Position numbers and translations under genes: made by a program. The notes beneath the pieces are model-generated. The model was not told where the DNA came from. It saw nothing but the letters and a program-made list of their open reading frames with translations, and searched no databases. DNA of 64,000 nt from Patescibacteria group bacterium (lineage in GTDB: Bacteria > Patescibacteriota > Minisyncoccia > Phycocordibacterales > Phycocordibacteraceae): assembly GCA_024653825.1 (NCBI GenBank), contig JANLHF010000001.1, positions 62 through 64,061 of the forward strand, read 5' to 3'. Below are positions 1-45,314 of this stretch, one piece after another; position 1 is the stretch's first letter; each line of letters begins with the position of its first letter.

Positions 1-280
1 CAAAACCAGCCTCCCAAAAGTTTCTTTAACCGGAAACATCGAAGGCCGTCAGACGTAAGACATCCTCGCCGTCGACTGAGCCTCTTTCCCCGATCCAGAA
101 ATCGTATTCGTGTTCACATAGCCCCCAATCAACCGAGTCCAGGTCATCCGGAAAACATTTGAAATACGTGAGAGGATAGTGGATCGCGATTCCTGGTTCG
201 ATATGCTGCACTTGTAACGTCACTGTCGTCGTTTCTTCTTCATTTTTCCCCATCTTTCCCTCCCTTTAGGAGAATCCGGA

Positions 281-1081
281 GTGAGTATAACTCCCCGTGC
301 TACTATTTTCCATATGCGTATTGTGTCGTGGAATGTGAACGGTCTGCGCTCGCTCACCAAGGAAAATTATTGGGGGGCGTTTTTACGAGACATGAAGCCC
401 GATATCTTCTGCCTCCAAGAGACCAAGGCAAATCCGGACCAGCTCTCTGAAGAATTCCTGTCCCCCGCCGGATACTCGGCGTTCTTTTCTTCGTGCCAAG
501 TACGTAAGGGTTACAGCGGCGTTGCGCTCTACTCTAAAATCGAGCCGCTCAAGGTGATCTACGGCATGGGAATTAAAGAGTTCGACCAAGAGGGCCGTGT
601 TATCGGCGCAGAGTTTGAAGACTTCTGGCTCATCAATGCCTACTTCCCCAACGGCGGCAAGGGTCCTGAACGCATAGACTACAAACTCCGCTTCTACGAC
701 ACCTTTCTTGCCTTCGTGGAAAAACTGCACAAAGAAAAACCGGTCATTTTCTGCGGCGACGTAAACACTGCCCACGAAGAAATCGATCTCGCCCGACCAA
801 AGGAGAATGAAGGTAACACAGGCTTCCTCCCCGAGGAGCGCGCCTGGATAGATGAGGTCATCAGCGCCGGCTACATCGACTCCTTCCGCTATTTTCATCC
901 AAACACCAAAGATGCGTACAGTTATTGGGACCAATTCACCCACGCCCGCGACCGTAACGTCGGCTGGCGCCTAGACTACTTCTTCGTCGCGGGCGAGTTT
1001 ATGAAGCGCGTAAAGAAAGCCGACATCCACCCCGACGTGTTCGGTTCCGACCACTGCCCTGTTTCCATCGAACTAAAATAA
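281..1081 (+). CDS. xth: Exodeoxyribonuclease III / AP endonuclease (Xth family)
   Basis: The translation has the ExoIII hallmark N-terminus RIVSWNVNGLRS and the C-terminal SDHCPV motif. GTG at 281 has an AGGAGA SD 7 nt upstream; an alternative ATG lies at 314. Confidence 0.88.
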   Translation: MSITPRATIFHMRIVSWNVNGLRSLTKENYWGAFLRDMKPDIFCLQETKANPDQLSEEFLSPAGYSAFFSSCQVRKGYSGVALYSKIEPLKVIYGMGIKEFDQEGRVIGAEFEDFWLINAYFPNGGKGPERIDYKLRFYDTFLAFVEKLHKEKPVIFCGDVNTAHEEIDLARPKENEGNTGFLPEERAWIDEVISAGYIDSFRYFHPNTKDAYSYWDQFTHARDRNVGWRLDYFFVAGEFMKRVKKADIHPDVFGSDHCPVSIELK

Positions 1082-1084
1082 ACA

Positions 1085-1327
1085 CTAAAGATTCTTGTAA
1101 GTATCCTCGTCTCTGAAATCTAAATCGCGCAAATATGCGACGCCATTAACTATGTCAAAAATAATTCTGAATTTGCCCACGCGCACCCGAAAGCGGTCTT
1201 CGTATCCTTTCAATTTCTTTACGTTAAGTTGCTGCCATTGTCCGGATACGATAAGTGCAACAACAGGCAAAACCTGCTCGCGACGCTTAGTGTCGAGACG
1301 CGCGAGAAATTTTTCTATCCTGTTCAT
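1085..1327 (-). CDS. Type II toxin, RelE/ParE family
   Basis: 80 aa. The motif GYEDRFRVRVGKFRIIFDI matches the RelE/ParE core. It overlaps the upstream antitoxin gene by 41 nt. Confidence 0.72.
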   Translation of the reverse strand: MNRIEKFLARLDTKRREQVLPVVALIVSGQWQQLNVKKLKGYEDRFRVRVGKFRIIFDIVNGVAYLRDLDFRDEDTYKNL

Positions 1328-1559
1328 TGAGTCGCTTTAACGCCGTGAGCACCTCTTCTGCGGGAACACCGCTAGGCCGTATCTTCGTAAAATCGACAAC
1401 AGTTTCCCATTTCCCCTCATCTCCCCATTCATCCACGGGTACAAGTCTAAATATCGGACGAGAACGACGCACGACGGTGAAAGACTTCCCTGCTTCCGCA
1501 TGTTTAATATAGGTACCCATATTCTCCCGTAGCTCCTTAAGCCCAATTATTTTTTGCAT
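1287..1559 (-). CDS. Type II antitoxin, Phd/YefM family
   Basis: 90 aa. The N-terminus IIGLKELRENMGTYIKHAEAGKSFTVVRRSRPIFRLVP fits the Phd/YefM fold pattern. It lies directly upstream of the RelE-like toxin. Confidence 0.72.
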   Translation of the reverse strand: MQKIIGLKELRENMGTYIKHAEAGKSFTVVRRSRPIFRLVPVDEWGDEGKWETVVDFTKIRPSGVPAEEVLTALKRLNEQDRKISRASRH

Positions 1560-1581
1560 ATTTTTGTCGCGGTAGTCATAT

Positions 1582-1613
1582 ACACGAAGATTATCTTAAG
1601 ATAATCTTCGTGT
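1582..1613. promoter_or_regulatory. 32-bp perfect palindrome, candidate operator of the Phd/RelE operon
   Basis: acacgaagattatcttaagataatcttcgtgt is perfectly self-complementary. It lies 23 nt upstream of the antitoxin start. Confidence 0.5.
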
Positions 1614-1720
1614 CAACAGAAGGTTATCCACCCCAACATCTTCGGCTCCGCTGTGCCCTGCCGAAGCTGACTAGCGCAGGAGGGCCCACTGCCCCATTTC
1701 TATAACGCTATAAAGGACAG

Positions 1721-1729
1721 TTATCCACA
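1721..1729. promoter_or_regulatory. Consensus DnaA box TTATCCACA inside an 8-bp inverted repeat
   Basis: TTATCCACA is flanked by AAAGGACA ... TGTCCTTT. A second near-box, TTATCCACC, lies at 1624-1632. Confidence 0.35.
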
Positions 1730-2018
1730 GGGTGTCCTTTACAATGTCCTTTAGCGAGATAGTATAAATCTCAGAGCGGCGAGCTGGCGGGTAAAATCCT
1801 CAGGCGCCGTGGCGGAAGCTCTTTCTTGATCTTTCCATCGGCATCAGAGTGCTATCTGCGAGAGTGCCTGCCAACGTTCGCGACGATTCGCGACACAAGC
1901 CCCATGGCACGGTATCCCTGAGTGGAGAAGCGCCAGAAGATGCACATCAAAAAAAACAAAAGCTGCTCTCAACCTAGGTAGGCCTACACCATTTACGCCC
2001 CTACTCCAAACACGTAAG

Positions 2019-2041
2019 CCGCCACGAGAGCGGCTTTTTTG
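2019..2041 (+). terminator. Rho-independent terminator-like hairpin
   Basis: GCCGCcacgagaGCGGC followed by TTTTTTG. It closes a ~450-bp region with no convincing ORF. Confidence 0.5.
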
Positions 2042-2065
2042 TTCCACGTGGAACATATTTCACAA

Positions 2066-3535
2066 CTAACAAACGTGGTGTTTACTCATTATTTTCTGTA
2101 CTTCTTCGTCCTCAGCGGCTTCCCTTCTCTGCTTCCCTGCCTCACCAAGCTTCTGTAGCTCTTCGTCCGATATCTCCAGGAGTTCAGCGGTCCGTTTATC
2201 AAGATATTCCTCGGTGTTCTTGGCTGAATCATCAAGTATTTCCTCAAGGAGGGCATTCAGCGCCCAACCGATCCTCGGTCCTGGGTTCACGTGGAACATT
2301 TCCATAATGTGCTCCCCGCCAGTCTTAAGCATCCCGACTGAAATAGGGTCTCGGAGCGCCTGTTCCACCATTGCCTTGTACTTACGGAAGCGAAAGGGCT
2401 GCTCCTTCGGCCGGCCGGTCCCTATACGGTCGCAGATACGCAGATTGAGTAGGTCCCATATATTCTCTTCGCCGACATTCTTAATCATTCGACGGACGGC
2501 CGAGAGGGTAATCTGCTCAGGATCCGAGAAGAACATATGCCAGCGGACCAGCTTCACCACTTTATCGATGGTCTCCCGAGAGAAATGGAGATCTTCGAGG
2601 GCTTTCTTTGTTACACGTGAACCAACAACCTCGTGGCCGTGGAAGCTCCACTCCTTCTTCTCCTCTGACCAACAGCGAGTCTCCGGCTTAGATACATCGT
2701 GGAAGAGGGCAGCAAGGCGTATGTCAAAGGGCCAGCCCTTATCGGCTGCGTGCTGCATAGAGCGCATAAGGTGCTCAAAGACGTCGTAGCTGTGGGCCTG
2801 ATTCTGTTCCACGCCGATTCCGCGAATGAGATCGGCTGAAATAAATTCGAGAATGCCGAGGCGTTGTGCAAGAACGAGAGCATTCATCGGCTGGGCAGAA
2901 TTGAGCATTCGTGTGAGTTCATCACGAACTCTTTCACGTGAAACATGGCTTAAATGCTCACTATTTTGACTTATTGCTGCCGCAGTATCACCGTCTATAC
3001 CAAAGTTAAGCTCGGCGACGAGACGAACGGCGCGCAACATACGCAAAGCGTCTTCATTAAAGCGTAGCGAGGCGTCACCAACGGCGCGCACCAGTTTGTC
3101 CTTTATGTCCTTTTGGCCACCGTATGGGTCAATTAGGTGTCCTTTAGCATCATCCAGCGCAATGGCGTTGATGGTGAAGTCGCGTCGCGCGAGATCTTCG
3201 AGTAGGGAAGCCCCGAACGCAACGGAGTCCGGACGGCGCTTATCAGAATATTCTGATTCGATACGATAGGGGGTTACTTCAACGATGGCGAGTCTCTGAT
3301 CTTCTACGCCGGTCTTCACCCCAACGGTGCCGTAGTTGTTTTCATAAAAAGAATCGGGAAATACGGTCTGTATCTCCTCGGGCTTCGCATTGGTGGTGAT
3401 GTCCCAATCCTTTGGTTCTAGGCCGATTATGAGGTCACGAACGCACCCGCCGACGAGGTAGGCCTCAAAACCGGCTTCCCGTAGACCGTTACTGACTACT
3501 TCGACCTCCTTCGGAATGAGATACTGCATTTCCAA
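2066..3535 (-). CDS. cca: CCA-adding tRNA nucleotidyltransferase with HD domain
   Basis: 489 aa. N-terminal polymerase-beta-type nucleotidyltransferase motifs GGCVRDLIIG and DWDITT, followed by an HD phosphohydrolase region. Confidence 0.85.
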   Translation of the reverse strand: MEMQYLIPKEVEVVSNGLREAGFEAYLVGGCVRDLIIGLEPKDWDITTNAKPEEIQTVFPDSFYENNYGTVGVKTGVEDQRLAIVEVTPYRIESEYSDKRRPDSVAFGASLLEDLARRDFTINAIALDDAKGHLIDPYGGQKDIKDKLVRAVGDASLRFNEDALRMLRAVRLVAELNFGIDGDTAAAISQNSEHLSHVSRERVRDELTRMLNSAQPMNALVLAQRLGILEFISADLIRGIGVEQNQAHSYDVFEHLMRSMQHAADKGWPFDIRLAALFHDVSKPETRCWSEEKKEWSFHGHEVVGSRVTKKALEDLHFSRETIDKVVKLVRWHMFFSDPEQITLSAVRRMIKNVGEENIWDLLNLRICDRIGTGRPKEQPFRFRKYKAMVEQALRDPISVGMLKTGGEHIMEMFHVNPGPRIGWALNALLEEILDDSAKNTEEYLDKRTAELLEISDEELQKLGEAGKQRREAAEDEEVQKIMSKHHVC

Positions 3536-3648
3536 ATCCTATCACAGTGCCGTACACTAAAGACACGCCCCGATATCTTTCAAAGCAGATATCGAGGCTC
3601 GTTTGGCGAATAAAGAATACTGGGAAGTCTTCTTTATTGCCTCTCTTC

Positions 3649-3720
3649 GCCCCGATGGTGAAATGGATATCATTGCTGCCTTCGAAGCAGTCGTTCCAGG
3701 TTCGAATCCTGGTCGGGGCA
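3649..3720 (+). tRNA. tRNA-Arg (anticodon UCG)
   Basis: Manual cloverleaf: acceptor GCCCCGA/TCGGGGC, anticodon stem GCTGC/GCAGT, loop CTTCGAA, T-arm CCAGGTTCGAATCCTGG. Confidence 0.8.
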
Positions 3721-3762
3721 CACTGGAAATTAAAATAGGTGGCGTGTTATGATGTCGCGAGC

Positions 3763-3833
3763 GCGGGTATGGTTCAATGGTAGAACATCTGGTTGCCAAT
3801 CAGATGATGGGAGTTCGATTCTCCCTACCCGCA
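3763..3833 (+). tRNA. tRNA-Gly (anticodon GCC)
   Basis: Acceptor GCGGGTA/TACCCGC, D-stem GTTC/GAAC, anticodon loop TTGCCAA, T-arm GGGAGTTCGATTCTCCC. Confidence 0.85.
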
Positions 3834-3967
3834 CAAATCAACAATTTTGCCTGTCTTTTGGTTCTGTGTTGAAAGTGGATAAACCTGTGCACACTGGGGA
3901 TAAAGGACAGGGGACTTTTATGGGAGTCTGTGAAATAGTGAGCGAATGAGCCATATTCTTAAAGGCC

Positions 3968-4363
3968 GTGGATATATCCTCTAAGACCAGGAAGGAGGTT
4001 GGTGCGCTGGGAGAAAAGGTGGCCGCCGAGTACCTTCGACGACACGGATTTTCTATCCGCGACCGCAATATCGCACGGAAAACAGGAGAGTTAGACATCA
4101 TCGCAGAGCACGAAGATACTCTGCATTTTGTTGAAGTGAAAACGATTCTTGTCGATGAATTTCCTCAAGAAAAATCAGTTGCTGATGATTATGACCCCTC
4201 GCTCAATCTGCACGAAGCGAAGATACGCAAGGTCGCGCGGACGGGGGAGTGGTATGTCCTTGAGAAAAACTGGGAAGGGGAGTGGCAGGTGGACGGAGTT
4301 CTCGTCTGGCTACGCCGGCGGGACGGCATGGCGAAGGTCAGCTACCTGCCACAAATCGTCTGA
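3968..4363 (+). CDS. YraN/UPF0102 family endonuclease-like protein
   Basis: The pattern GxxGExxAxxYLxxxG ... IRDRNIARKTGELDIIAE ... FVEVKT is typical of the UPF0102 family. Confidence 0.75.
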   Translation: MDISSKTRKEVGALGEKVAAEYLRRHGFSIRDRNIARKTGELDIIAEHEDTLHFVEVKTILVDEFPQEKSVADDYDPSLNLHEAKIRKVARTGEWYVLEKNWEGEWQVDGVLVWLRRRDGMAKVSYLPQIV

Positions 4364-4387
4364 TGATGTTAGAGTGCTCATGTAACC

Positions 4388-4460
4388 CACCTTCGCTCGG
4401 CTGCGGGCTTCGCCCCGCCATAGCCGAGCTTCGGCGAGGCGACGGCGGGGCGTAGTATAC
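4388..4460. repeat. Structured intergenic repeat, copy A
   Basis: Shares CGCTCGG ... AGCCGAGCTyyGGCGAGGCGAmGGCGGG ... AGTATA with copy B at 6546-6625. The inner stem differs compensatorily: gcggg/cccgc here versus cgag/ctcg in B. It sits between convergent gene ends. Confidence 0.5.
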
Positions 4461-4516
4461 CGGTAGTACACTTGCTTTGGGAGCAAGTAGACCGAGTCCG
4501 ATTCTCGGCGCCCCGA

Positions 4517-5677
4517 CTAAGGTAGTTCTAGAATCGCTTCGAGCATTGGTATCTGCAGAGCGAAGTTAGATATCGAGGCTGTGATTGGTTGGGCGAGAAG
4601 AAGGTCGAGGGCATTCCCGATCTCACTCGCGTATTCAGCGCGGATGTAGGAAGCTGTGATGGCATCGAGTGAGCGCATGCTCGTGTCCCCCTCGACGGTA
4701 CTCGTTGTGATAGTGCCTACAAGTTCGCCGGAGGCATCGGCAACTCCGCCACCGGAAGACCCCTCTTGTGCCGCCGCCGAACCACCAAGTGCAAGTACAT
4801 CAATCGTGTTGTTTGCAAAGGTGAATACGTCTTTCACTGAGCCGAAAACGATGGTGGGAAAGAGGCCGAACTGAACTTGGCTCGATGCGAGAAACTGCGC
4901 GCCGTATGAGGCGATAACGATCGGTGTGTCTGTGATCGGCGGGATGATCGCGAGCGGAATAAAAGGGAACGAAGTCGGGAGAGCGTTTCTCGAAATACTC
5001 TTTGTAACAGCGAGAAACGCGAAATCATATTCACCGGTACCGCTCGGGGCCACCTGGGTGAGCACGGTCGAGTTCGCGCTGAGCCACGCCGGCGAAATGT
5101 AAATAAGAGAGGCCTTATAACTGTCAGTGGCGGGACTCCCCGCACGTATGGTGCAGGTAACACTCCGGTCGGCGAGGAGGAAGTACTGTGCAATGTGTGC
5201 GTTCGTGAGGATAATACCCTTCGGATCGATAAATACGCCGCTACCGCTGATAGAGTGCAGACCGCTACCGACAGGAACGTAACAGATGATATTCACGAGT
5301 GCCGCACGGAGTGTTGTCGCGGCCGCATCAAGCAATGTGTTTGTGACTTGTGGAGCCGGCGCGGGAGCCGATACAGGCACCGGTACGGCGACTGGCACTG
5401 GCGTGGACGTTGCGACGGGAGCCTTCGGTATCGTCTTCTTCGGAGCGGACGATGTTTCTATCGCGGGAGCTATTACAGAAGTTGTTGCGATCGACTCGAG
5501 CGCCGCTGGTGCGGATGAAGTGGGAACTACGGTGACTGTCGAAGAGGTAGAGGAGGGGGAGGATACATGCTCGGCCTTCGGCTCGCTCGGAGAACCGGCG
5601 ACGATGATGATCAGCAGGACCAGGACTGTAATGCCGAGATACGGCAGGAATCGTTTCATCTCAATCTTCATCTTCAT
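4517..5677 (-). CDS. Secreted trypsin-like (S1/HtrA-like) serine protease with N-terminal TM and S/T/P-rich linker
   Basis: His TNAHI, Asp, and Ser GSSGGGV catalytic motifs are present. The start is set at MKMKIEMKRFLPYLGITVLVLL, which is followed by a TM helix. The ORF runs in frame up to 6034, but that extension overlaps a tRNA and shows no protein-like features. Confidence 0.78.
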   Translation of the reverse strand: MKMKIEMKRFLPYLGITVLVLLIIIVAGSPSEPKAEHVSSPSSTSSTVTVVPTSSAPAALESIATTSVIAPAIETSSAPKKTIPKAPVATSTPVPVAVPVPVSAPAPAPQVTNTLLDAAATTLRAALVNIICYVPVGSGLHSISGSGVFIDPKGIILTNAHIAQYFLLADRSVTCTIRAGSPATDSYKASLIYISPAWLSANSTVLTQVAPSGTGEYDFAFLAVTKSISRNALPTSFPFIPLAIIPPITDTPIVIASYGAQFLASSQVQFGLFPTIVFGSVKDVFTFANNTIDVLALGGSAAAQEGSSGGGVADASGELVGTITTSTVEGDTSMRSLDAITASYIRAEYASEIGNALDLLLAQPITASISNFALQIPMLEAILELP

Positions 5678-5709
5678 ACGGTATCGTAAAAATGGTATTC
5701 TCGCACTAA

Positions 5710-5780
5710 GCGGACGTGGTCTAACGGTATGACGGTTGCCTTCCAAGCAATCAGCGCGGGTCCGACTCCCGCCGTCCGCA
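5710..5780 (+). tRNA. tRNA-Gly (anticodon UCC) with non-canonical T-loop
   Basis: Acceptor GCGGACG/CGTCCGC, anticodon loop CTTCCAA, T-arm GCGGG-TCCGACT-CCCGC with C instead of the usual U at position 55. Otherwise close to a canonical tRNA-Gly(UCC) layout. Confidence 0.68.
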
Positions 5781-5830
5781 CAAAATAGTTCCAGACTGAT
5801 AGCACCGGTCCGATTCCGGTATCCCGCACA
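5781..5830 (+). other. tRNA 3'-half-like fragment (T-arm plus acceptor 3' strand only)
   Basis: ACCGG-TCCGATT-CCGGT followed by ATCCCGC-A-CAA parallels the 3' end of the adjacent tRNA-Gly, GGTCCGAcTCCcGccgTCCgCAcaa. No matching 5' half is present. Confidence 0.4.
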
Positions 5831-5877
5831 ACGACAAAAAAGAGGATTGAAATAACCGCCACAGCTGATATGCTGGC

Positions 5878-6171
5878 GTGCATATGGAACATTCACCAGA
5901 ACGACGCAAGGTAGAAGGCGCTCCTGTTCCCAGTCCAACTGAACCTCACGTTGAAATGCATCATGTGCATGGAGAAGATTTCGAGACTGCCACGAGAGAA
6001 GAAAAGATCGAGATACAGAAAGAAATACTGGCATATGAAGAAGGAGTGCTGACGGACATGGAGCTGAATCCCACGCTGACGCTTAAAGCGAAGAGGATAC
6101 TCGCGAGAAACCAGAAGAAGATCATCTCCGAGGCAAGAGAAAACCTCGAAAGGACCGTGGCATCCACATAA
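5878..6171 (+). CDS. Hypothetical small protein
   Basis: 97-aa ORF. A sigma70-like promoter TTGAAA-16-TATGCT lies just upstream, and a strong terminator follows. Confidence 0.45.
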   Translation: MHMEHSPERRKVEGAPVPSPTEPHVEMHHVHGEDFETATREEKIEIQKEILAYEEGVLTDMELNPTLTLKAKRILARNQKKIISEARENLERTVAST

Positions 6172-6195
6172 TATCGAAACAGCCAAAAATCAAAA

Positions 6196-6223
6196 ACCCG
6201 CCTAAGGCGGGTTTTTGATACTC
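6196..6223. terminator. Bidirectional rho-independent terminator
   Basis: aaaaACCCGCCttaGGCGGGTttttt, with an A-run before and a T-run after. It serves the + ORF and the hup gene on the - strand. Confidence 0.7.
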
Positions 6224-6241
6224 TTCTAGTCTAGAAAACCC

Positions 6242-6514
6242 TTATTTTACTGCATCCTTCAACGCTTTCGCGGCGCGGAACTTCGCGGTGCGCGAAGCGT
6301 TGATGTGGATCGTCTCGCCCGTGCGAGGATTACGCCCCTGACGTGCCGGACGCGCCTTCGTCGCGAAGATGCCGAGACCGGCGATTGATACTTCGTCGCC
6401 ACCCTTCAGGCCGGAAACGACAGAATCAATAACACACTCGACTGCGCGCTCGGCGTCGGACTTGGTCGTGCCGAGAACACCGTGCACCTTGTCTACGATA
6501 TCTGCTTTGTTCAT
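6242..6514 (-). CDS. hup: DNA-binding protein HU
   Basis: 90 aa. MNKADIVDKV ... GFGIFATKARPARQGRNPRTGE is the canonical HU/IHF arm region. Confidence 0.9.
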   Translation of the reverse strand: MNKADIVDKVHGVLGTTKSDAERAVECVIDSVVSGLKGGDEVSIAGLGIFATKARPARQGRNPRTGETIHINASRTAKFRAAKALKDAVK

Positions 6515-9865: not shown

Positions 9866-12007
9866 TTAGAACAATGCTGCGAGTGTGGCTAGGAGGAGAA
9901 GTGCGACGATGTTCGTAATTTTAATCATCGGATTAATCGCCGGACCGGCCGTATCCTTATATGGATCGCCAACCGTGTCGCCGGTGACGGCCGCCTTATG
10001 TGCATCCGAACCCTTACCGCCGTGATTACCGTCTTCAATATGCTTCTTCGCATTGTCCCAGGCACCGCCACCGGATGTCATCGAGATTGCAACGAAGAGT
10101 CCCGTCACAATAACGCCGAGTAACATGGCACCGAGTGCGTTGAATGCAGCAGTCTTCCCGGCCACGAGGTCCACTATCACGAAGAGCGCGATCGGCGAAA
10201 GCACCGGCAAGAGGGAAGGGATGATCATCTCGTGAATGGCCGCCTTCGTCAGCATGTCCACGGCGCGTCCATAGTCCGGCTTCTGGGTGCCCTTCATGAT
10301 GCCCGGCATCTCCCTAAACTGGCGGCGAACTTCTTCAACAACAGCACCAGCCGCACGTCCAACCGCAGTCATCGCCATACCGCTGAATACATACGGAAGC
10401 AATCCTCCAAGGAAGAGCCCGACTACCACCCAAGGATCAGTCAGACTGAAGGCTGGAACTTCAATACCCTTAAAAAAGGCGTAGGTGCCTGAGTGAATAA
10501 AATACTTCAGGTCTTCGGTATATGCGGCAAAAAGCACGAGCGCGCCGAGGCCTGCTGAGCCGATGGCGTAGCCCTTCGTCACCGCCTTCGTCGTGTTACC
10601 GACGGAGTCGAGTGCATCCGTCACCTTGCGCACGTCGCCCTCGAGTCCGGCCATCTCGGCGATTCCGCCCGCGTTGTCGGTCACCGGACCGAATGCATCT
10701 AGGGCGACCACCATACCAGCGAGCGAGAGCATCGTCGACACAGCAATGGCGATACCGAAGAGTCCCGCGAAAGAATAGGCGGAAATGATACCAATACAGA
10801 TGATAATCGCCGGCATCGCGGTCGCCTCCATAGATACGGCGAGACCCTGGATGACGTTCGTGCCGTGACCAGTAACTGACGCCGCGGCAATCTTCTTAAC
10901 GGGACGAAAATCCTTGCCGGTGTAATACTCGGTGACCCAGATCAAAGCGCCCGTAACGGCGAGGCCGACGACTCCGGAATAGAAGAGATCATTGCCAGTG
11001 AACGTGAGGCCGTTTGTTGTAATGAGAATCGTCTTCATTCCTCCCGGTATGATGCTGTTCATCAGAGGCCAGAGTCCGGCAAGTGAGAGGACACCGGTCG
11101 CGATGACACCCTTATAGAGCGCTCCCATAATATTCTCGCTCGCGCCAAGACGGACGAAGAAGGAACCGAAGATGGAGGTGATGGTGCAAAGTGCGGCGAT
11201 GCCGAGCGGGAGGAGCATCAGCGCGACCTTAGTCCCGCCGGTGAAATAAATCGATGCGAGCACCATCGTGGCGACGGTAGTTACTACATACGTCTCAAAG
11301 AGGTCGGCCGCCATGCCGGCGCAGTCGCCGACGTTATCGCCGACGTTATCCGCGATAGTGGCGGGATTGCGTGGATCATCCTCCGGAATGCCGGCCTCCA
11401 CCTTACCGACCATGTCGCCACCGACATCAGCCCCCTTGGTGAAGATTCCACCGCCGAGACGAGCAAAAATTGAAATCAATGATGCGCCAAAGCCGAGCGC
11501 AATGAGAGAGTCCTGGATGATGCGCCCCTCTGCAACCGAATTAATATCAAGGCCGAGAACCGATACGAGGAAGAAGTAGTAGCCGGCGACGCCAATAAGG
11601 CCGAGGCCGACGACCAAGAGGCCGGTCACCGTGCCTGAACGGAAGGCGAGCGCGAGCCCCGAGGCGAGACCTTCGCGTGAAGCCTCAGTCGTGCGTACGT
11701 TGGCGCGCACCGAGACATTCATACCGATGTAGCCTGTCGCGCCGGAAAGCGCTGCACCGATCAAATAGCCAACTGCGACCTGCCAACCGAGGAAGTACCA
11801 TGCGAAGGCGAAGATAACGGCGCCGACGATGGCAATTGTCCGGTATTGGCGATTGAGATACGCGCTTGCTCCCTCCTGAATTGCGGCGGCGATCTCTTGC
11901 ATGCGAGCATTGCCAGGACTCTTTGAGAGTACCGAGCGCACCGCCCATCCGCTATACAGAAGTGCTCCTACGCCACACGCGAGTATCCATCCAAGTGTCA
12001 GTTCCAT
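9866..12007 (-). CDS. hppA: K+/H+-translocating membrane pyrophosphatase (V-type PPase)
   Basis: 713 aa, polytopic. Signature [18 protein letters not shown] is present. Confidence 0.9.
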
Positions 12008-12124
12008 ACGATTGTATTATTTTATGTTTGTAGTTTTGAATATACTACGCTCAAGCGAGCGAATCAAAAGAGAAATTCCGATTTTTCTTTTGTGAACGAG
12101 CGCGGGGAGAAAGTCCGTATGGGC

Positions 12125-13558
12125 TTATTCATCCTTCGCCTTGTCGCGATTTTCCTCTTTATCGGCGACGGTTTCATCGCTAGCGGGGAGCTCGGTCAAC
12201 TCTTCTTCGGCGGGAAGACCAGAGGCCTCCGGCTCTTCTTCGGTCACCGCAGTAAAGCTCTCAGTCGGCATCACTCCCGCTGCCACAGCAGGCTCTGTCT
12301 CATCTTCTTTACGAGACGGGTCTCCATCTACGGCGGCAACTGATCCACTATCGGACCCTATAATCTCCGTCCCGGCGACAGAGACGATATCGATGTTCCA
12401 GCCGGTCAGCTTCGCTGCGAGACGCACGTTCTGCCCACCGCGGCCGATAGCAAGGGACTGCTCGTCTTCGGCGACCGTGACGGTCGCGCGATGATCGACT
12501 TCGTTGAGCACAACCTCGATGGGGGTAGCGGGAGAAAGCGCCTCTTTCACAAATTCTTTTGCGTCATCATTCCATTCAATGATGTCGATGCGTTCGCCGC
12601 CGAGCTCGCTCATAACGGTCGAGACGCGCACGCCGCGCTGACCGACAAGAGAACCGACTGGATCCACATGAGGATCGAGTGAGGAGAGTGCGATCTTGGT
12701 GCGACTGCCCGGCTCGCGCGCAAGCGCCTTCACCTCGATAGCCCCAGAAGCGAGTTCCGGTGCCTCCATTTCAAAAAGCTTCACGACGAACTTCGGGTGC
12801 GCGCGAGAGAGACGCAAATAGACCCCGCGGAATCCTTCATCCACCGCATAGAGATACGCACGGATACGCTCTCCCATGCGATAACGCTCGCCCGGAATCT
12901 GTTCCTCGTAGGGAATGATGCCTGTGGTGCGGCCGAGGTCGACGAAGATCGCCCCACGTTCCATACGCTGGACGATACCGCCGACAATCTGACCCTTCTT
13001 CTCGCTAAATTCCTCCATCATCGAGAGTTTCTCGGCCTCGCGCACCTTCTGGATAACCACCTGCTTGGCCGTCTGAGCGGCGATACGGCCGAAGTCGTCC
13101 TGCGGCTCGAGCGGGAAGATGATTTCTTCACCGAGAATCGCGCCGCGCTTAATCAGCTTCGCATCAGTGAGCAAAAGGTGCTTCTCTGAATCGAAGCGGG
13201 GGAGTTCGCCTTCGGCGAGCTGCTCTTCATCGGCGTGATAGGCGTGGGCGTGCTGATGCTCCTCGGGAATTTCTTCACCGGGCGCGGGGAAACGCACCGT
13301 CGTATCATCAACGACGGTTTTTATTTGTTCAAAGGAGATGGTGCCGGTGTTGAGGTCTATCGAAGCATGAATGACTTGTCCGCGCTTGCCGTATTCGCGC
13401 TTGTAGGCGGTGGCCATAGCACTCTCGATGGCTTCTATCATCGTCTCACGGCTGATGCCTCGATCCTCGAACTCTCCGAGCACTGCATTGATGGTTTTCA
13501 AATCAATCATATATGGAATGTGTATGTCGCACGTTTTTAAGCAGAAAGTCCGCACCAC
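12125..13558 (-). CDS. nusA: Transcription termination/antitermination factor NusA
   Basis: N-terminal domain, S1 and KH domains, and an acidic C-terminal tail. The start may be GTG at 13558 (GGGGG SD) or ATG at 13510 (MIDLK). Confidence 0.88.
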   Translation of the reverse strand: MVRTFCLKTCDIHIPYMIDLKTINAVLGEFEDRGISRETMIEAIESAMATAYKREYGKRGQVIHASIDLNTGTISFEQIKTVVDDTTVRFPAPGEEIPEEHQHAHAYHADEEQLAEGELPRFDSEKHLLLTDAKLIKRGAILGEEIIFPLEPQDDFGRIAAQTAKQVVIQKVREAEKLSMMEEFSEKKGQIVGGIVQRMERGAIFVDLGRTTGIIPYEEQIPGERYRMGERIRAYLYAVDEGFRGVYLRLSRAHPKFVVKLFEMEAPELASGAIEVKALAREPGSRTKIALSSLDPHVDPVGSLVGQRGVRVSTVMSELGGERIDIIEWNDDAKEFVKEALSPATPIEVVLNEVDHRATVTVAEDEQSLAIGRGGQNVRLAAKLTGWNIDIVSVAGTEIIGSDSGSVAAVDGDPSRKEDETEPAVAAGVMPTESFTAVTEEEPEASGLPAEEELTELPASDETVADKEENRDKAKDE

Positions 13559-41465: not shown

Positions 41466-42200
41466 TTCCTCCTTTAGATCCTCTGTGGTGAGTGTTTTAC
41501 GTACATAGAGCTCTTGGAGTGCTCCGGCGAGGTTTGTTGTAATAAAATAGAGAGCAACAGCCCCTGAGGTCGTGTAAGAGATTGTTCCAATAAGGAAGGG
41601 GAAGACGTATTTCAACTGTAACCCCATCACGCGCTGGAAATCATTTTGCATACCCCTGCCCTCGGACGGCTTCATCGTCCCTGAAAGGGCCATATGCGCT
41701 TGGAGGAACTGAGTGATGCCCGCGAGCACTGCGAGGGTGATACTTTTCCCTGCGACAGAAATAAATCCTAAGAACTCTAGGGAGATGAGGTGTGGAATCG
41801 GGGTAAGTGCATAGAGCCGGGCGGTGTTGATAGTTGAAAAAGGCTCGTAATAGAAGACCCAGTAGAGGGCGAGAAGAACGGGGATCTGGATGAAAACAGT
41901 GAGGATACTCGCGAAAGGATTCACTTGTGCCTCTTTATAGAGAGCGAGTGTCTCGAGTGCTTCTTTCTCTTTATCTCCCTTATGTTTTTCTTTCAGGTCT
42001 TTTATCTTCGGCTCGAGTATCTTCATCGCGCGCTGGGTGCGTGCCGCAGAAAGGGAGAAGGGGAGAAGTACGAGACGGATAACAATAGTGAGAAGAATGA
42101 CCGCAATCCCTACATCCCCACCAGGGACGAGCGCAACAAGAGCGACAAGAGCGTTGTAGATCGGATTATAGAAAACAGTGTGGAAAAAAGTTGAGATCAC
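41442..42200 (-). CDS. yidC: Membrane protein insertase YidC (short form)
   Basis: 252 aa with the YidC/Oxa1 core helices. It lies in rpmH-rnpA-yidC synteny. Confidence 0.85.
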   Translation of the reverse strand: MISTFFHTVFYNPIYNALVALVALVPGGDVGIAVILLTIVIRLVLLPFSLSAARTQRAMKILEPKIKDLKEKHKGDKEKEALETLALYKEAQVNPFASILTVFIQIPVLLALYWVFYYEPFSTINTARLYALTPIPHLISLEFLGFISVAGKSITLAVLAGITQFLQAHMALSGTMKPSEGRGMQNDFQRVMGLQLKYVFPFLIGTISYTTSGAVALYFITTNLAGALQELYVRKTLTTEDLKEELQRVAPE

Positions 42201-42496
42201 GAAAGAAGTTTCTTTAACTCTGATTGAATATCTTTGTAGCTTACACTACTTACAGATGTTTTGGGAAAAAGAATGAGGGAAGAAGGAAGCTGGAGGGTGC
42301 GGAGTGCTGAAAGTACGCGACGTTTTATCTTATGTCGTGTGACCGAGAGCCTCGCTACCTTTTTGGGTATAACCACAGCGTGTCCTCTTCCTTCTGAGGA
42401 GATAATCACCATAAAATGTAGTGAGGAGAGCCTTCGTCCGGTTTTAAGGACGGTAGGGAATGACGCTCGAGGAAGCCGTTCTCGCCGTCTAAACAC
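42197..42496 (-). CDS. rnpA: Ribonuclease P protein component
   Basis: 99 aa, basic, with the RNR-like motif KKVARLSVTRHKIKRR. It is adjacent to rpmH. Confidence 0.82.
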   Translation of the reverse strand: MFRRRERLPRASFPTVLKTGRRLSSLHFMVIISSEGRGHAVVIPKKVARLSVTRHKIKRRVLSALRTLQLPSSLILFPKTSVSSVSYKDIQSELKKLLS

Positions 42497-42498
42497 AG

Positions 42499-42636
42499 CT
42501 AAACCGCGAGACGGGTCCTCCCGGCACGACGACGACGGAGCACAATCTTGCGCCCAGAACTTGTCTTTGTGCGGGCGAGGAACCCGTGGGTGGTAGCGCG
42601 CTTCTTTTTCTTCGGTTGATAGGTCCGTTTGGTCAT
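42499..42636 (-). CDS. rpmH: 50S ribosomal protein L34
   Basis: Translated by hand: [45 protein letters not shown]. It is below the ORF-track length cutoff. Confidence 0.85.
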
Positions 42637-42731
42637 GTAGAAAAGATTAGTTTATACACATGATATTAACAGGTTTTCCACGAAACGCCAACGTGCCTTG
42701 TTTATGGTATCAGCGTATACTCCAGAGTATT
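42637..42731. promoter_or_regulatory. Putative oriC segment / dnaA promoter region with DnaA-box-like sites
   Basis: TTATACACA (8/9) and TTTTCCACG (7/9) lie between rpmH and dnaA. A further CTATCCACA lies at 44099-44107, between dnaA and dnaN. Confidence 0.45.
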
Positions 42732-44084
42732 ATGGATAAGGGAAATCCTCGAGAGTTGTGGGAATACATTCTTACTCAAATCGAGCTTTCTATTTCTTCC
42801 GCAAATTTCAATACTTGGTTTCGAAATAGCTTCATAGTAAAAATAGGAGAGGACGGGGTTATCTACATCGGGGTGCCGAGCCAATTTTTTAAAGATTGGT
42901 ACCTAAAGAAATTTCATTCTCTTCTTTTGAAGATTGCCCGTGATGTTTCGTATGAGTTCCGTAATATTGAATATCTTATTGTAAAGGATGAACACCGTAA
43001 GATTCAGAAAGAAACGAAGAATGTGCGTGGTGTAATGGAACTCCCTCTTGATGAATTCTATATCAACAAAAGTGATAGTCTAAATCCGCGCTACACCTTC
43101 GATACGTTCGTTATTGGTTCTTTTAATACTCTTGCGCACACTGCCGCTCAAGCAGCGCTTGCACGACCTGGTATCACCTATAATCCTCTCTTTGTGTATG
43201 GCGACACAGGAAGAGGGAAGACCCATCTTATTCAAGCGATTGGAAATCAGTTTAAGAAACAGTACCCTGGACGCAAAGTGTTTTATCTCACTTCAGAAAA
43301 ATTTGCTGTTGATTACACTGATTCGGTACAAGCGGGAACTGCAAATCGTTTCAAAGACAAATACCGTCAGTATGATCTTCTTATTATGGATGACGTTCAG
43401 TTCCTCTCTAAAAAAGATAAAACGCAAGAAGAACTCTTTCATCTCTTTAATACCCTCCACGATACAAATAAACAAATTATATTTTCCTCCGATCGTGCAC
43501 CTTCTGCTATTCCTGATATTGCTGAACGATTAAAAGGTCGTCTTGCAAGTGGTATGGCGGTCGATATTAGTGAACCTGATACTGAATCGCGTATGGCTAT
43601 CGTACAGAAAAAGGCTGCATCACATGGGATTATGCTTTCCCCAGAAGTTATCGAGTATGTCGCGACAGCAATGTCAGGCTCTATCCGAGAATTAGAAGGG
43701 ATGGTGAATAGTATTATTTGTCATGCTCAAGTAAAGGGGAGTGCACCTGATATTGCTGAGGTACGCCAATCACTTCGCTCTTTTACTCGACCTCAGAAAA
43801 ACATCTCTGTGAAGAATGTAGTTGATAAGGTCGCAGAATATTATGGTATTGATGAAGAAAGTATTTATGAGAAAACAAGAAGAAGAGAGGTAGTGCGTCC
43901 TCGACAAGTAATTATGTACCTCCTTAGAGAAGACTTTAGTATTTCATATCCTACAATAGGAACAAAACTTGGTGGTCGTGATCACACAACTGTTATTCAC
44001 TCGTGTGAGAAAATAAAGCGTGAAGTACTTGTGGACAATGATCTTTTAAAAGAGATCCAAAATATTAGATCTCTTCTTGTATGA
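42732..44084 (+). CDS. dnaA: Chromosomal replication initiator DnaA
   Basis: AAA+ Walker A GDTGRGKTHL, a sensor region, and a C-terminal DNA-binding helix-turn-helix. Confidence 0.93.
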   Translation: MDKGNPRELWEYILTQIELSISSANFNTWFRNSFIVKIGEDGVIYIGVPSQFFKDWYLKKFHSLLLKIARDVSYEFRNIEYLIVKDEHRKIQKETKNVRGVMELPLDEFYINKSDSLNPRYTFDTFVIGSFNTLAHTAAQAALARPGITYNPLFVYGDTGRGKTHLIQAIGNQFKKQYPGRKVFYLTSEKFAVDYTDSVQAGTANRFKDKYRQYDLLIMDDVQFLSKKDKTQEELFHLFNTLHDTNKQIIFSSDRAPSAIPDIAERLKGRLASGMAVDISEPDTESRMAIVQKKAASHGIMLSPEVIEYVATAMSGSIRELEGMVNSIICHAQVKGSAPDIAEVRQSLRSFTRPQKNISVKNVVDKVAEYYGIDEESIYEKTRRREVVRPRQVIMYLLREDFSISYPTIGTKLGGRDHTTVIHSCEKIKREVLVDNDLLKEIQNIRSLLV

Positions 44085-44196
44085 ACTTTATACTTACTCT
44101 ATCCACATATTCTGTTTTCTTGAATGAGGAAAATACACAATCACTATATAGTTCTTTCAGCCTATCCCCAGTGTTAACAGCCCTAATAGATGTTGT

Positions 44197-45297
44197 ATGA
44201 ATATTTCAATAGAAAAAAAAGAATTCGTTGAAGCAGTGCATAAGTCAGCACGTTTTGCTGAAAAGAAGACTGGAACACTCCCAGCACTCTCTTCAATCCT
44301 TATTATTGCAAGTGGTGATGGTATAAAAATGCGCGCAACGAATCTTGAAACAGGTATTGATTTAAAACTGAATGGAAAAGTTATATCCGATGGTGTTGTT
44401 GCAATACCTGCAACTATACTCCAACAGATAGCAAGTTCACTTACTCATGAAGGGACGATAGTATTAGAACATACAGGAGACACTCTCTCATTAAAGAGTG
44501 GTATGGGAAAAAGTACTATTAAGACGGTTGCTTACGACGATTTTCCTTCAATTCCTTTTCCAGAGAATCCGAAAAATAGAATGGTGATTCCTGGAGTTCT
44601 TCTTCGTTCTCTTTTTACCTCAATAGCATCTTGTGCTTCTTCTTCGACTATTCGACCTGAATTATCGAGTTTATATCTATCTGTAGAGGGAAATATATTA
44701 ACTGCAGTAGCAACAGATTCTTTCCGTCTCGCAGAGAAAAAAATTCCTCTTTCAAATAAAGGAACACAAGGAAAATTCCTTATTCCTGCTAAAAATGCGC
44801 TTGAGATAGCACAAGCACTACCAGATGAAGATATTATTATGTCTTTCGATGAACATCAATGTGCTTTTGTGGGAGATATGGGAATGATTGTTTCTCGACT
44901 CACAAACGCAACATATCCTGATTATCGGCAGATAATACCAAAAGAATCAATTGTTGAAGCGATTGTTCTTCGAAAAGATTTTGAACAAGCTTTAAAAAGA
45001 ACTACTATTTTTTCCGATTCATTCCAGAAAATACGAATAAGCTTTGATTCAAAGAAAAATACTCTTTCATTTTTTGCACGCAATCCAGATATTGGAGAAT
45101 CATCAGAAATCATACCAGCTCATATATCCGGTAGTGCACTCGATCTCTCGTTTAACTATCGGTATCTTTCAGCGGTACTCTCTCTTACAACTACAGAAAG
45201 TATTTCATTAACTGCTGCAGGAATAGGGCGCCCAATTATTATAAAGGGGATAACTGATACATCTCTTCTGTATCTCGTCTCTCCAATGAATCAGTAG
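44197..45297 (+). CDS. dnaN: DNA polymerase III beta sliding clamp
   Basis: 366 aa with a three-domain clamp pattern, directly downstream of dnaA. Confidence 0.9.
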   Translation: MNISIEKKEFVEAVHKSARFAEKKTGTLPALSSILIIASGDGIKMRATNLETGIDLKLNGKVISDGVVAIPATILQQIASSLTHEGTIVLEHTGDTLSLKSGMGKSTIKTVAYDDFPSIPFPENPKNRMVIPGVLLRSLFTSIASCASSSTIRPELSSLYLSVEGNILTAVATDSFRLAEKKIPLSNKGTQGKFLIPAKNALEIAQALPDEDIIMSFDEHQCAFVGDMGMIVSRLTNATYPDYRQIIPKESIVEAIVLRKDFEQALKRTTIFSDSFQKIRISFDSKKNTLSFFARNPDIGESSEIIPAHISGSALDLSFNYRYLSAVLSLTTTESISLTAAGIGRPIIIKGITDTSLLYLVSPMNQ

Positions 45298-45314
45298 AAG
45301 ATATATAATCCTAT

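Follow-up and report, generated by a model that had tools for sequence, protein, structure and literature searches.

A very probable structured RNA gene behind a conserved promoter with a DnaA-type box in Candidatus Kaiserbacteria

The stretch analysed here, hereafter called the window, comprises 64,000 nucleotides of a Patescibacteria group bacterium (contig JANLHF010000001.1 of assembly GCA_024653825.1, positions 62 to 64,061). Its interval 1560-2065 holds few open reading frames (ORFs), and a sequence-only reading had treated it as one unit, a candidate non-coding RNA (ncRNA) or regulatory hub. The palindrome, the boxes, the repeats and the stem with its T-run on which that reading was built were all present where it had placed them. 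Judged by an alignment with related loci, which divides the interval at these points, it consists of four unrelated pieces: a predicted toxin-antitoxin (TA) operator, a relic of the exonuclease III gene xth, a promoter, and an RNA gene. The left third (1560-1712), made up of the operator and the dead xth copy, is unrelated to the remainder. The structured RNA gene on the right is very probably real. The pieces and the two flanking genes are as follows.

281-1081, plus strand: exonuclease III gene xth, flanking gene
1560-1619, minus strand: TA promoter and operator piece, from the layout of the sequence
1620-1712, plus strand: relic duplicate of the xth 3' end, from alignment with the xth end of the window and those of loci L006, L043 and L001
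1709-1765, plus strand: conserved promoter and control region, from a promoter scan and an nhmmer module found in 73 of 78 loci
1773-2043, plus strand: structured small RNA of ~271 nt, from conservation, covariation and covariance models; start predicted
2066-3535, minus strand: CCA-adding enzyme gene, flanking gene, with its stop at 2066 and convergent with the RNA

The comparison drew on 80 loci (L001-L080) from species-representative genomes, found by a search with the CCA-adding enzyme (66-85% identity) and belonging nearly all to Candidatus Kaiserbacteria or to other Paceibacterota/Parcubacteria (Candidate Phyla Radiation, CPR) or Patescibacteria assemblies. Searches with blastn and nhmmer matched window ~1680-1790 in the same orientation in 73 of the 78 usable loci, at 285-540 nt beyond the CCA stop. 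Conservation of the segment from 1680 onward outside this genome was one of the points on which the RNA proposal had been staked beforehand, and it was found. The position of the RNA between xth and the CCA-adding enzyme gene is kept in the relatives, and in every one of them, as in the window, the gene that comes next on its 3' side is that of the CCA-adding enzyme, in convergent orientation; in the window only 23 nt separate the RNA end from the CCA stop. The RNA body, which starts ~7 nt after the -10 element, can be aligned in about 48 loci at a length of 215-305 nt, and a longer form of ~330-380 nt with an extra terminator occurs in the most divergent subclade, giving an overall range of 215-380 nt in about 70 related genomes. 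The predicted transcript of the window, about 271 nt, is shorter than the 300-400 nt first suggested.

The RNA can be divided into a 5' hairpin, a central domain and a 3' domain, joined by two linkers. Its elements, all on the plus strand, are listed below.

1773-1777/1818-1822: hairpin P1 with a 40-nt inserted hairpin, by inspection
1823-1840: pyrimidine-rich linker UUCUUGAUCUUUCCAUCG
1841-1943: central domain
1841-1845/1939-1943: outer helix D, by eye (GCAUC:GAUGC, GCGUC:GACGC, GCAC:GUGC)
1849-1853/1929-1933: inner helix D, covariation on the model alignment
1867-1872/1906-1912: helix C, covariation
1879-1883/1888-1892: hairpin H2, TTCGCGAC-GA-TTCGCGAC, covariation
1893-1901: conserved unpaired ACACAAGCC of the central domain
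1944-1959: A-rich linker
1960-2036: 3' domain
1960-1968/2028-2036: long-range helix A, covariation
1981-1987/2014-2020: helix B, covariation
1988-2007: conserved loop ACCAUUUACGCCCCUACUCC within helix B
2035-2043: conserved U-tract after helix A

Comparison of the aligned sequences revealed compensatory changes that back five helices (A, B, C, inner D and H2). For helices A and B, 89.9% of the cells in 39 sequences are paired and 16 of 19 pairs show double changes; the 109 double-change cells stand against 33.7±6.7 in shuffled alignments (0/500) and 17-30 in controls in which the pairing partner was slid. Helix C and H2 gave 89.2% paired cells in 38 sequences, double changes in 8 of 11 pairs, and 41 double-change cells (shuffled, 9.5±2.5; slid, 4-12). 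The central domain including inner helix D reached 92.7% in 28 distinct sequences, with double changes in 12 of 16 pairs and 36 double-change cells against 7.8±2.4 after shuffling, on a covariance-model alignment that was fitted to the model and is biased toward it. Covariance-model alignments were used because the MAFFT alignment of helix B and outer helix D was unreliable. The covariation check proposed for this region thus came out above its controls in every set.

The covariance models themselves were specific. Model R1 matched window 1956-2045 at 55.2 bits (E 3.9e-12) as its sole plus-strand match in the window, with an antisense match of 18.5 bits to the same stretch; it also matched about 60 loci at the expected place, and gave no match in 638 kb of unrelated viral DNA. 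Model R2 matched window 1838-1943 at 99.4 bits, again as the sole plus-strand match in the window. A scan of viral contigs with the promoter pattern returned 120 matches, which is the chance level, and none was accompanied by the RNA. Folding of single sequences was uninformative (z-scores of -1.3 and -1.8); the unconstrained minimum-energy fold of the window sequence uses helices A and B too.

The direct repeats TTCGCGAC, at 1877 and 1887 in the window, had been listed as part of the regulatory hub. They are present, and since TCGCGA is self-complementary they form a stem: the two copies are the arms of the covarying hairpin H2, and we rejected them as iterons or other protein-binding sites. 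The H2 loops of the relatives (CGAU, CGUAU, CGAAU) vary by 1-2 nt.

A G+C-rich stem followed by a T-run was found at 2016-2043 on the plus strand, in agreement with the intrinsic terminator proposed earlier. Its local hairpin (2016-2022/2030-2036) uses the same 3' strand as helix A. In many relatives the 5' arm of this local hairpin has mismatches or is absent altogether, whereas the distal arm of helix A covaries; the conserved end of the RNA is therefore helix A plus the U-tract. We accordingly rejected the local hairpin as a conserved element and regard it as specific to the window. The sequence AGAGCGGC occurs both at the 5' end of the RNA (1773-1780) and in the 3' arm of the terminal stem (2027-2034), which might allow an interaction between the 5' end and the 3' domain or an alternative pairing. 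A pseudoknot between the 5' end and the 3' loop (AAAGGA·CGGG with CCUG·UCCUUU) is suggestive in some members and inconsistent across groups.

These alternative pairings bear on whether the RNA could be a riboswitch, T-box or attenuator leader left orphaned by the loss of the gene behind it. Such a leader would account for AGAGCGGC at 1773 and 2027 and for the two alternative partners of the terminal-stem 3' arm, and a weak Trp_leader match was obtained (21.6 bits, against a gathering score of 41). It would also require a gene to control, and no co-directional gene follows in the window or in the relatives: the convergent CCA-adding enzyme gene comes next in all of the about 70 genomes, with no same-strand downstream ORF across the family. 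The T-box and riboswitch models gave no match, and the alternative local hairpin is not conserved. We consider an orphaned leader extremely unlikely.

Just as little credit can be given to a small protein-coding gene. A purine-rich run, AAGGAcGrG, follows the -10 element in many relatives and resembles AAGGAG, a possible ribosome-binding site, and ORFs of 31 and 42 codons lie inside the window interval. A search for a conserved ORF among the relatives found none, as frame, start and length all differ, and several relatives lack any ORF of at least 15 codons in the RNA interval. When the sequences were anchored on the conserved ACAAGCC, stops appeared in all three frames in about half or more of them, and the 1-2 nt variation of the H2 loop would shift any frame. 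The purine run at the 5' end has a partner within the RNA, pairing with the first UCUUU box to form P1. The small protein gene was rejected on these grounds, and the region is non-coding as had been suggested.

The ncRNA proposal is hence upheld by its presence in about 70 genomes, by compensatory changes and by the lack of a conserved ORF, and we asked whether the RNA belongs to a known family. In Rfam 15, no match to the window RNA or its relatives was found at gathering thresholds (window and 11 loci), nor any family match at an E of 1 or of 0.05 or less. Scanning window 1760-2050 and the divergent L052 (7450-7960) with cmscan to E=10 listed no RNase P RNA, transfer-messenger RNA (tmRNA), signal recognition particle (SRP) RNA or 6S RNA, in agreement with the sequence-only reading, which had seen no convincing motifs of the first three. 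ARAGORN on positions 1-6000 returned tRNAs only, and neither a tRNA-like end nor a tag ORF was seen. In contrast to RNase P RNA, the 5' and 3' ends lie in separate domains (P1 at 1773-1822, helix A at 1960-2036); GGAAAGUCC and ACAGAA-CGGCUUA (P4) are absent from the plus strand, and look-alikes on the minus strand stand in the wrong order. For 6S RNA, there is no RF00013 match and the fold has three separate domains, not a rod. For SRP RNA, neither RF00169 nor RF01854 matched, and the H2 loop is CGAU or CGUAU with no GNRA helix 8.

A strongly diverged housekeeping RNA (RNase P RNA, 6S, SRP or tmRNA) could nevertheless be missed by the standard models. The window encodes rnpA beside rpmH yet holds no recognisable RNase P RNA, and the pattern GGCACGGUA...GGAG.AAG.GCC presumably resembles GGCACGGUAAAC...GGAGCAAGGCC of the E. 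coli M1 RNA. Known bacterial RNase P RNAs are longer than ~215 nt, the size of the shortest members here. Diverged RNase P RNA is documented in CPR bacteria, where in 10 of 35 complete genomes it was detected only after the RF00010 thresholds had been lowered (Lui et al. 2021, PMC8172020). The family was not listed by Rfam even at E=10, it shows neither the P1 of RNase P RNA nor the closing stem of 6S RNA, and the CR-I and CR-V motifs of RNase P RNA are not in order. Moreover, the window covers 64 kb of a ~1 Mb genome, and the real housekeeping genes probably lie elsewhere. Taken together, we judge this possibility very unlikely. A literature search on small RNAs (sRNAs) or 6S RNA of CPR bacteria, Kaiserbacteria or Parcubacteria found nothing, and the RNA family is apparently new and previously undescribed.

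Upstream of the RNA lies a promoter region, the only part of the interval to which the earlier regulatory-hub proposal applies: it carries several conserved motifs that look like protein sites. Its elements, all on the plus strand, are listed here.

1711-1719: TAAAGGACA, the inverted copy, from a 9-mer count
1721-1729: DnaA box TTATCCACA, perfect match
1733-1741: TGTCCTTTA, overlapping the -35
1738-1743: -35 element TTTACA, promoter scan
1745-1753: third copy, TGTCCTTTA, in the spacer
1760-1765: -10 element TAGTAT, promoter scan

The scan identified a sigma-70-type promoter, TTTACA-16-TAGTAT, and promoter statistics were drawn from 67 loci. Across these, GTGTCCTTTACA is at least 90% invariant, the second TGTCCTTTA is ~80% conserved, and the -10 fits TAnnnT. 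The box reads TTATCCACA in 30 of the 67 and carries 1-2 mismatches in the remainder, the commonest other forms being TTATCCCCA, CTATCCACA, TTGTCCACA, CTATCCCCA, TTATGCACA and TTATACACA; its start lies 17-18 nt upstream of the -35 in 61 of them. The window box agrees with the TTATNCACA DnaA consensus, which accepts either G or A at position 5. The relatives have a variable insert of 0-40 nt that separates TAAAGGACA from the box, and one subclade carries two tandem boxes there, as opposed to the single box of most genomes. With -35/-10 elements in 67 loci and helix A plus the U-tract at the other end, the sequence presents both a promoter and a terminator for the RNA.

The motifs of this region are enriched in the window: the perfect DnaA box occurs twice (0.29 expected), DnaA-like boxes with at most one mismatch 26 times (9.3 expected), and the 9-mer TAAAGGACA/TGTCCTTTA six times (0.21 expected). 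The string GTTATCCAC is found at 1623 and at 1720. The DnaA box had been described as nested in an inverted repeat within a possible transcript. The box is there and conserved, although as a promoter element upstream of the predicted transcript, and the "inverted repeat" is better seen as three copies of one 9-mer: two TGTCCTTTA copies form direct repeats 12 bp apart over the -35 and the spacer, and the third copy lies inverted upstream. Two more TAAAGGACA copies, at 3097-3105 and 3138-3146, belong to the coding sequence of the CCA-adding enzyme, in which they specify the conserved peptides KDIKDK and AKGH; nearly all relatives have them as well (126 occurrences in the bin). Coding constraint probably explains these copies, although a factor that binds TGTCCTTTA would find sites in them too.

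Nothing else in the locus is as well conserved as the promoter, its -35 and -10 above all, and this suggests protein binding. DnaA is the obvious candidate reader of the box. Canonical DnaA boxes are plausible in this organism because the DnaA of the window carries the usual DNA-binding domain (Bac_DnaA_C) and box-like 9-mers cluster around dnaA at 42-44 kb. Control of the RNA promoter by DnaA is a tentative proposal, to which we give somewhat less than an even chance. The TGTCCTTTA repeats, in turn, would be bound by a second DNA-binding factor. A LexA/SOS operator was also considered for TAAAGGACA-N13-TGTCCTTTA; the Patescibacteria motif of that kind is reportedly of the GAAC/GTTC type.

The promoter also bears on an action of the RNA in cis, as the xth 3' untranslated region, as an insulator between the convergent xth and CCA-adding enzyme genes, or as an antisense brake on read-through from the latter. 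The promoter block of the relatives begins at the xth stop, so xth transcripts could enter it; in the window the 3' end of the RNA comes within 23 nt of the stop of the opposing CCA-adding enzyme gene, and either strand could form the 2016-2036 stem. No other part of the locus, however, is as well conserved as the -35 and -10, and insulation would not call for ~250 nt of sequence in which five helices covary and loops are invariant. Bidirectional terminators distinct from the RNA lie between it and the CCA-adding enzyme gene in several relatives. The window has an oppositely oriented TA cassette that separates xth from the RNA, yet the RNA gene and its promoter block are intact from TAAAGGACA onward, which shows that the RNA unit is independent of xth. 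We therefore hold a cis role to be decidedly unlikely.

This cassette lies outside the RNA locus, and together with its operator and the xth relic it accounts for the left part of the interval.

1085-1559, minus strand: TA cassette, between xth and the RNA promoter
1085-1327, minus strand: toxin-like ORF of 80 aa, cassette member
1287-1559, minus strand: Phd/YefM-family antitoxin, matches to Pfam PF02604 and NCBIfam TIGR01552
1582-1613, both strands: perfect 32-bp (16+16) palindrome ACACGAAGATTATCTT/AAGATAATCTTCGTGT, inverted-repeat search, 100% complementary

A family match was sought for the 80-aa toxin-like ORF and none was found. No copy of the cassette was detected by blastn in any of the 80 related loci, and the cassette is, on this comparison, a strain-specific insertion. 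No integrase was found near it. The palindrome is located 23 bp upstream of the antitoxin start, as read from the sequence, and overlaps a promoter-like site on the minus strand: a -35 TTGACA at 1619-1614, then 17 nt, then TAATCT. Type II TA operons are autoregulated through an operator, and for this reason the palindrome, which the sequence-only reading had likewise called a TA operator, is presumed to be the operator of an autoregulated TA promoter. The layout, with the palindrome over the promoter-like site of the antitoxin-toxin operon, is that of a type II TA operator.

The relic next to it is frame-broken and carries a ~34-nt insertion at about 1656-1689; the functional copy of the duplicated end is 1019-1081, inside the intact gene. 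In the relatives, the conserved block that precedes the promoter, CGACCACTGCCCYGTYTC..., corresponds to the xth end itself (...GSDHCPVSI.L*); the promoter comes straight after the stop codon of that gene, and the TAA of this codon falls inside TAAAGGACA. Two copies of the last ~60-90 nt of xth bracket the TA cassette, and the cassette therefore entered near the xth 3' end; the duplicated end around 1085-1619 has the look of a scar left by an insertion into the 3' end of a gene. The second, 8/9 DnaA box that had been noted at 1624 falls within this relic. TTATCCACC at 1624-1632 is what is left of the codons GAT ATC CAC CCC (D-I-H-P) present in every xth, and we rejected it as a DnaA site. On the minus strand this relic box, GGTGGATAA (1614-1632 region), stands 7 nt upstream of the TA promoter -35 TTGACA, probably a coincidence of the insertion junction.

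Two relatives showed further differences on the xth side. L006 has two 255-aa minus-strand ORFs (4151-4918 and 5745-6512), the distal of which is xth by its 3' end; xth may have been duplicated there, or something inserted between xth and the RNA. In L008, a full-length 23S rRNA gene (9935-13372) lies ~2 kb beyond the RNA/xth side, and a 16S rRNA gene was not detected in the same locus stretch, in agreement with the unlinked rRNA genes reported for CPR bacteria (PMC8172020).

On the other side, the CCA-adding enzyme gene is followed by two tRNAs and a YraN-family gene (window annotation; ARAGORN for the tRNAs), and sites resembling the partition site parS extend from the RNA end into the CCA-adding enzyme gene. 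The features of this area and of the origin region are given below.

2040-2055, both strands: parS palindrome TGTTCCACGTGGAACA, perfect match to TGTTNCACGTGNAACA, between the RNA end and the CCA stop
2283, both strands: parS-like GGGTTCACGTGGAACA, 1-2 mismatches, inside the CCA-adding enzyme gene
2609, both strands: parS-like TGTTACACGTGAACCA, 1-2 mismatches, inside the CCA-adding enzyme gene
2930, both strands: parS-like TCTTTCACGTGAAACA, 1-2 mismatches, inside the CCA-adding enzyme gene
3870-3912: second conserved module AGTGGATAAaccTGTGCACActGGGGATAAAGGACAggGGAC, in the window and about 41-45 relatives
42500-42637, minus strand (42637-42500): rpmH, with rpmH-rnpA-yidC facing dnaA-dnaN
42660-44084: dnaA, domain match
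44197-45297: dnaN, domain match

Matches to TGTTNCACGTGNAACA with at most two mismatches number 4 in the window against 0.10 expected, and all of them lie in 2040-2945. The sites are 16-bp palindromes and clustered, as expected of parS, and the cluster is present in all 80 loci, which average 3.3 sites each between -400 and +1000 as counted from the CCA stop. In 45 of 73 relatives, GTTCCACGTGAAA(G), matching 14 of the 16 parS positions, occurs inside the RNA at the place of window 1913-1928, which in the window and in a few close relatives is taken by an unrelated hairpin, UAUCCCUGAGUGGAGA. The GTTCCACGTGAAA motif may work at the RNA level, at the DNA level, or both.

The module at 3870-3912 contains inverted DnaA-like boxes, TTATCCACT (3874-3882) and TTATCCCCA (3895-3903), both on the minus strand and 21-22 bp apart, along with a TGTGCACA palindrome and the same ATAAAGGACA as the RNA promoter. 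The two boxes stand next to the same TAAAGGACA, and the module lies ~60 nt upstream of the start of yraN (UPF0102), which follows the module in 23 of the 25 loci with an ORF start within 220 nt. Since the yraN module carries DnaA-like boxes and ATAAAGGACA like those of the RNA promoter, the two regions may share regulators.

The origin region proper lies elsewhere in the window. At 42200-45300 the genes follow the classical origin-region order, with a gap of 22 bp between rpmH and dnaA; the cumulative GC-skew minimum falls at about 40-46 kb, the G+C content is lowest at 42-46 kb (0.38-0.43), and DnaA-like boxes occur at 42179, 42652, 42731, 44030 and 44099. An identity of the RNA locus as oriC was rejected, as it has one genuine box and lies 40 kb from dnaA/dnaN and the GC-skew minimum.

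This setting raises the question of whether the conservation resides in the DNA, as a partition or replication-control region with clusters of parS and DnaA boxes, the RNA being a by-product. The parS-like sites around the CCA stop in all 80 loci, GTTCCACGTGAAA inside the RNA of 45 of 73 relatives, and the DnaA-type boxes conserved at two places flanking the CCA-adding enzyme gene and the neighbouring tRNA genes would all fit. Binding sites, however, give no compensatory Watson-Crick and G·U changes confined to the correct register; the G·U pairs fit the plus strand only, with R1 scoring 18.5 bits on the minus and 55.2 bits on the plus strand. The window lacks the internal parS-like motif and yet keeps a hairpin there, and the U-tract and the promoter give the element a clear polarity. 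Conservation at the DNA level is thus a very unlikely explanation of the RNA.

In its general features the RNA resembles the orphan structured ncRNAs of bacteria (raiA motif RNA, OLE, ROOL, GOLLD, and the motifs of Weinberg et al. 2017), which are likewise intergenic, a few hundred nt long and restricted to certain lineages, with several covarying helices, invariant unpaired stretches and a function that cannot be deduced from the neighbours. It differs in having no Rfam 15 match, in its CPR host, and in a promoter with a DnaA-type box that is better conserved than the RNA. From the diverged RNase P RNA of CPR bacteria (PMC8172020), likewise a structured RNA missed at Rfam gathering thresholds and one whose partner rnpA is in the window, it is set apart by the lack of an RF00010/RF00011 match at E<=10, of P1/P4, CR-I and CR-V, and by many members being too short. 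With trans-encoded sRNAs it shares an own promoter, a terminal stem with a U-tract, an A-rich linker and CU- or C-rich stretches complementary to the Shine-Dalgarno sequence, while being larger and more structured than most of them. Pyrimidine-rich seeds are known from such sRNAs, as in the C-rich motifs of RsaE/RoxS and the UCCC loops of RNAIII; a seed role of UCUUUC and CUCCUUU here is a matter of resemblance only. The Kaiserbacteria RNA is a new family of a known general kind.

The promoter can be compared in the same manner. DnaA-regulated promoters and non-origin box clusters include dnaA autoregulation, Bacillus subtilis sda and DnaA-box clusters, and E. coli datA/DARS. As in these, a consensus TTATNCACA box is fixed beside the promoter tens of kb from oriC, and a second, two-box cluster lies about 2 kb away (3874-3903). 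In contrast to them, most members have a single predicted box, the gene under control would be an ncRNA, and about a fifth carry the A7-to-C change. Response-regulator boxes over the -35 are exemplified by PhoB (CTGTCAT-N4-CTGTCAT) and B. subtilis PhoP (TTAACA repeats); the TGTCCTTTA copies are similar as TGTC-core direct repeats spaced by roughly one helical turn (12 bp here) over the -35 and spacer, but differ from pho boxes in sequence, in the 12-bp instead of 11-bp period, and in the extra inverted copy upstream. A response-regulator-type arrangement is a lead for the reading of these repeats.

Taken jointly, the best explanation is probably an undescribed structured RNA of Candidatus Kaiserbacteria with its own promoter, DnaA-type control and action in trans. 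Transcription from this promoter would yield a discrete RNA of ~270 nt that folds into the 5' hairpin, the multi-helix central domain and the closed 3' domain and ends at helix A and the U-tract. Synthesis would be gated by DnaA at the box and by the second factor, bound to the TGTCCTTTA repeats lying across the -35 and spacer. The RNA would then exert its effect in trans, with mRNAs or a protein partner as targets, by way of conserved stretches left unpaired, namely two UCUUUC boxes (the second at 1830-1836), ACACAAGCC and ACGCCCCUGCUCCUUUU, the last of which reads ACGCCCCUACUCC in the window. The helix B loop carries ACGCCCCU(G/A)CUCC(UUUU) at 1995-2007. Two of these stretches resemble the anti-Shine-Dalgarno sequence. 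A base-pairing regulator is suggested by these pyrimidine-rich stretches and by the pairing of the first one with the purine-rich 5' end, but the RNA may just as well serve to bind a protein. That the RNA works specifically in the manner of an anti-Shine-Dalgarno sequence we consider doubtful.

The conservation of the segment, its position between the same neighbours, the base-pair covariation, the non-coding character and the conservation of the promoter are observations, and several points weigh against what we build on them. P1 and outer helix D come from inspection. Sequences can exceed covariation controls through relatedness alone, which the slid-partner controls mitigate. Helix B is weakened in the window, with three non-standard pairs in the register of the model and one C·A mismatch in the other register. 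The transcript start is placed from the -10 position and the onset of pairing alone, and the anti-Shine-Dalgarno idea is one of resemblance. Finally, 13 of the 67 promoters carry TTATCCCCA or CTATCCCCA, with A7 changed to C. Under the E. coli rule TTATNCACA, DnaA would be expected to bind such boxes only weakly; some other protein may recognise the 9-mer, or control by DnaA may be dispensable.

To our knowledge, almost nothing is known about ncRNAs or gene regulation in CPR bacteria, whose genomes of ~1 Mb encode few recognisable regulators. The locus offers a well-defined new RNA family that lends itself to testing, found in about 70 species-level genomes at lengths of 215-380 nt and held together by five covarying helices. 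Its promoter is among the best conserved seen in these genomes, and the 9-mer that recurs at yraN gives a first handle on what may be a small regulon. The parS cluster and the origin region are now mapped for Kaiserbacteria, and the interval serves as an example of an odd non-coding gap that turns out to combine the scar of an insertion, the remains of a gene, a promoter and an RNA gene. A more far-reaching idea, which we regard as unlikely, is that the RNA is a riboregulator coupled to replication and segregation, or a ribonucleoprotein scaffold, of the ultra-small CPR bacteria, with its gene inside the parS cluster and gated by DnaA and a factor shared with yraN. Such an RNA would report the status of DnaA and the origin to translation or nucleic-acid metabolism in cells that lack most classical regulators. 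If DnaA really controls the RNA, replication status would be linked to post-transcriptional control in minimal cells.

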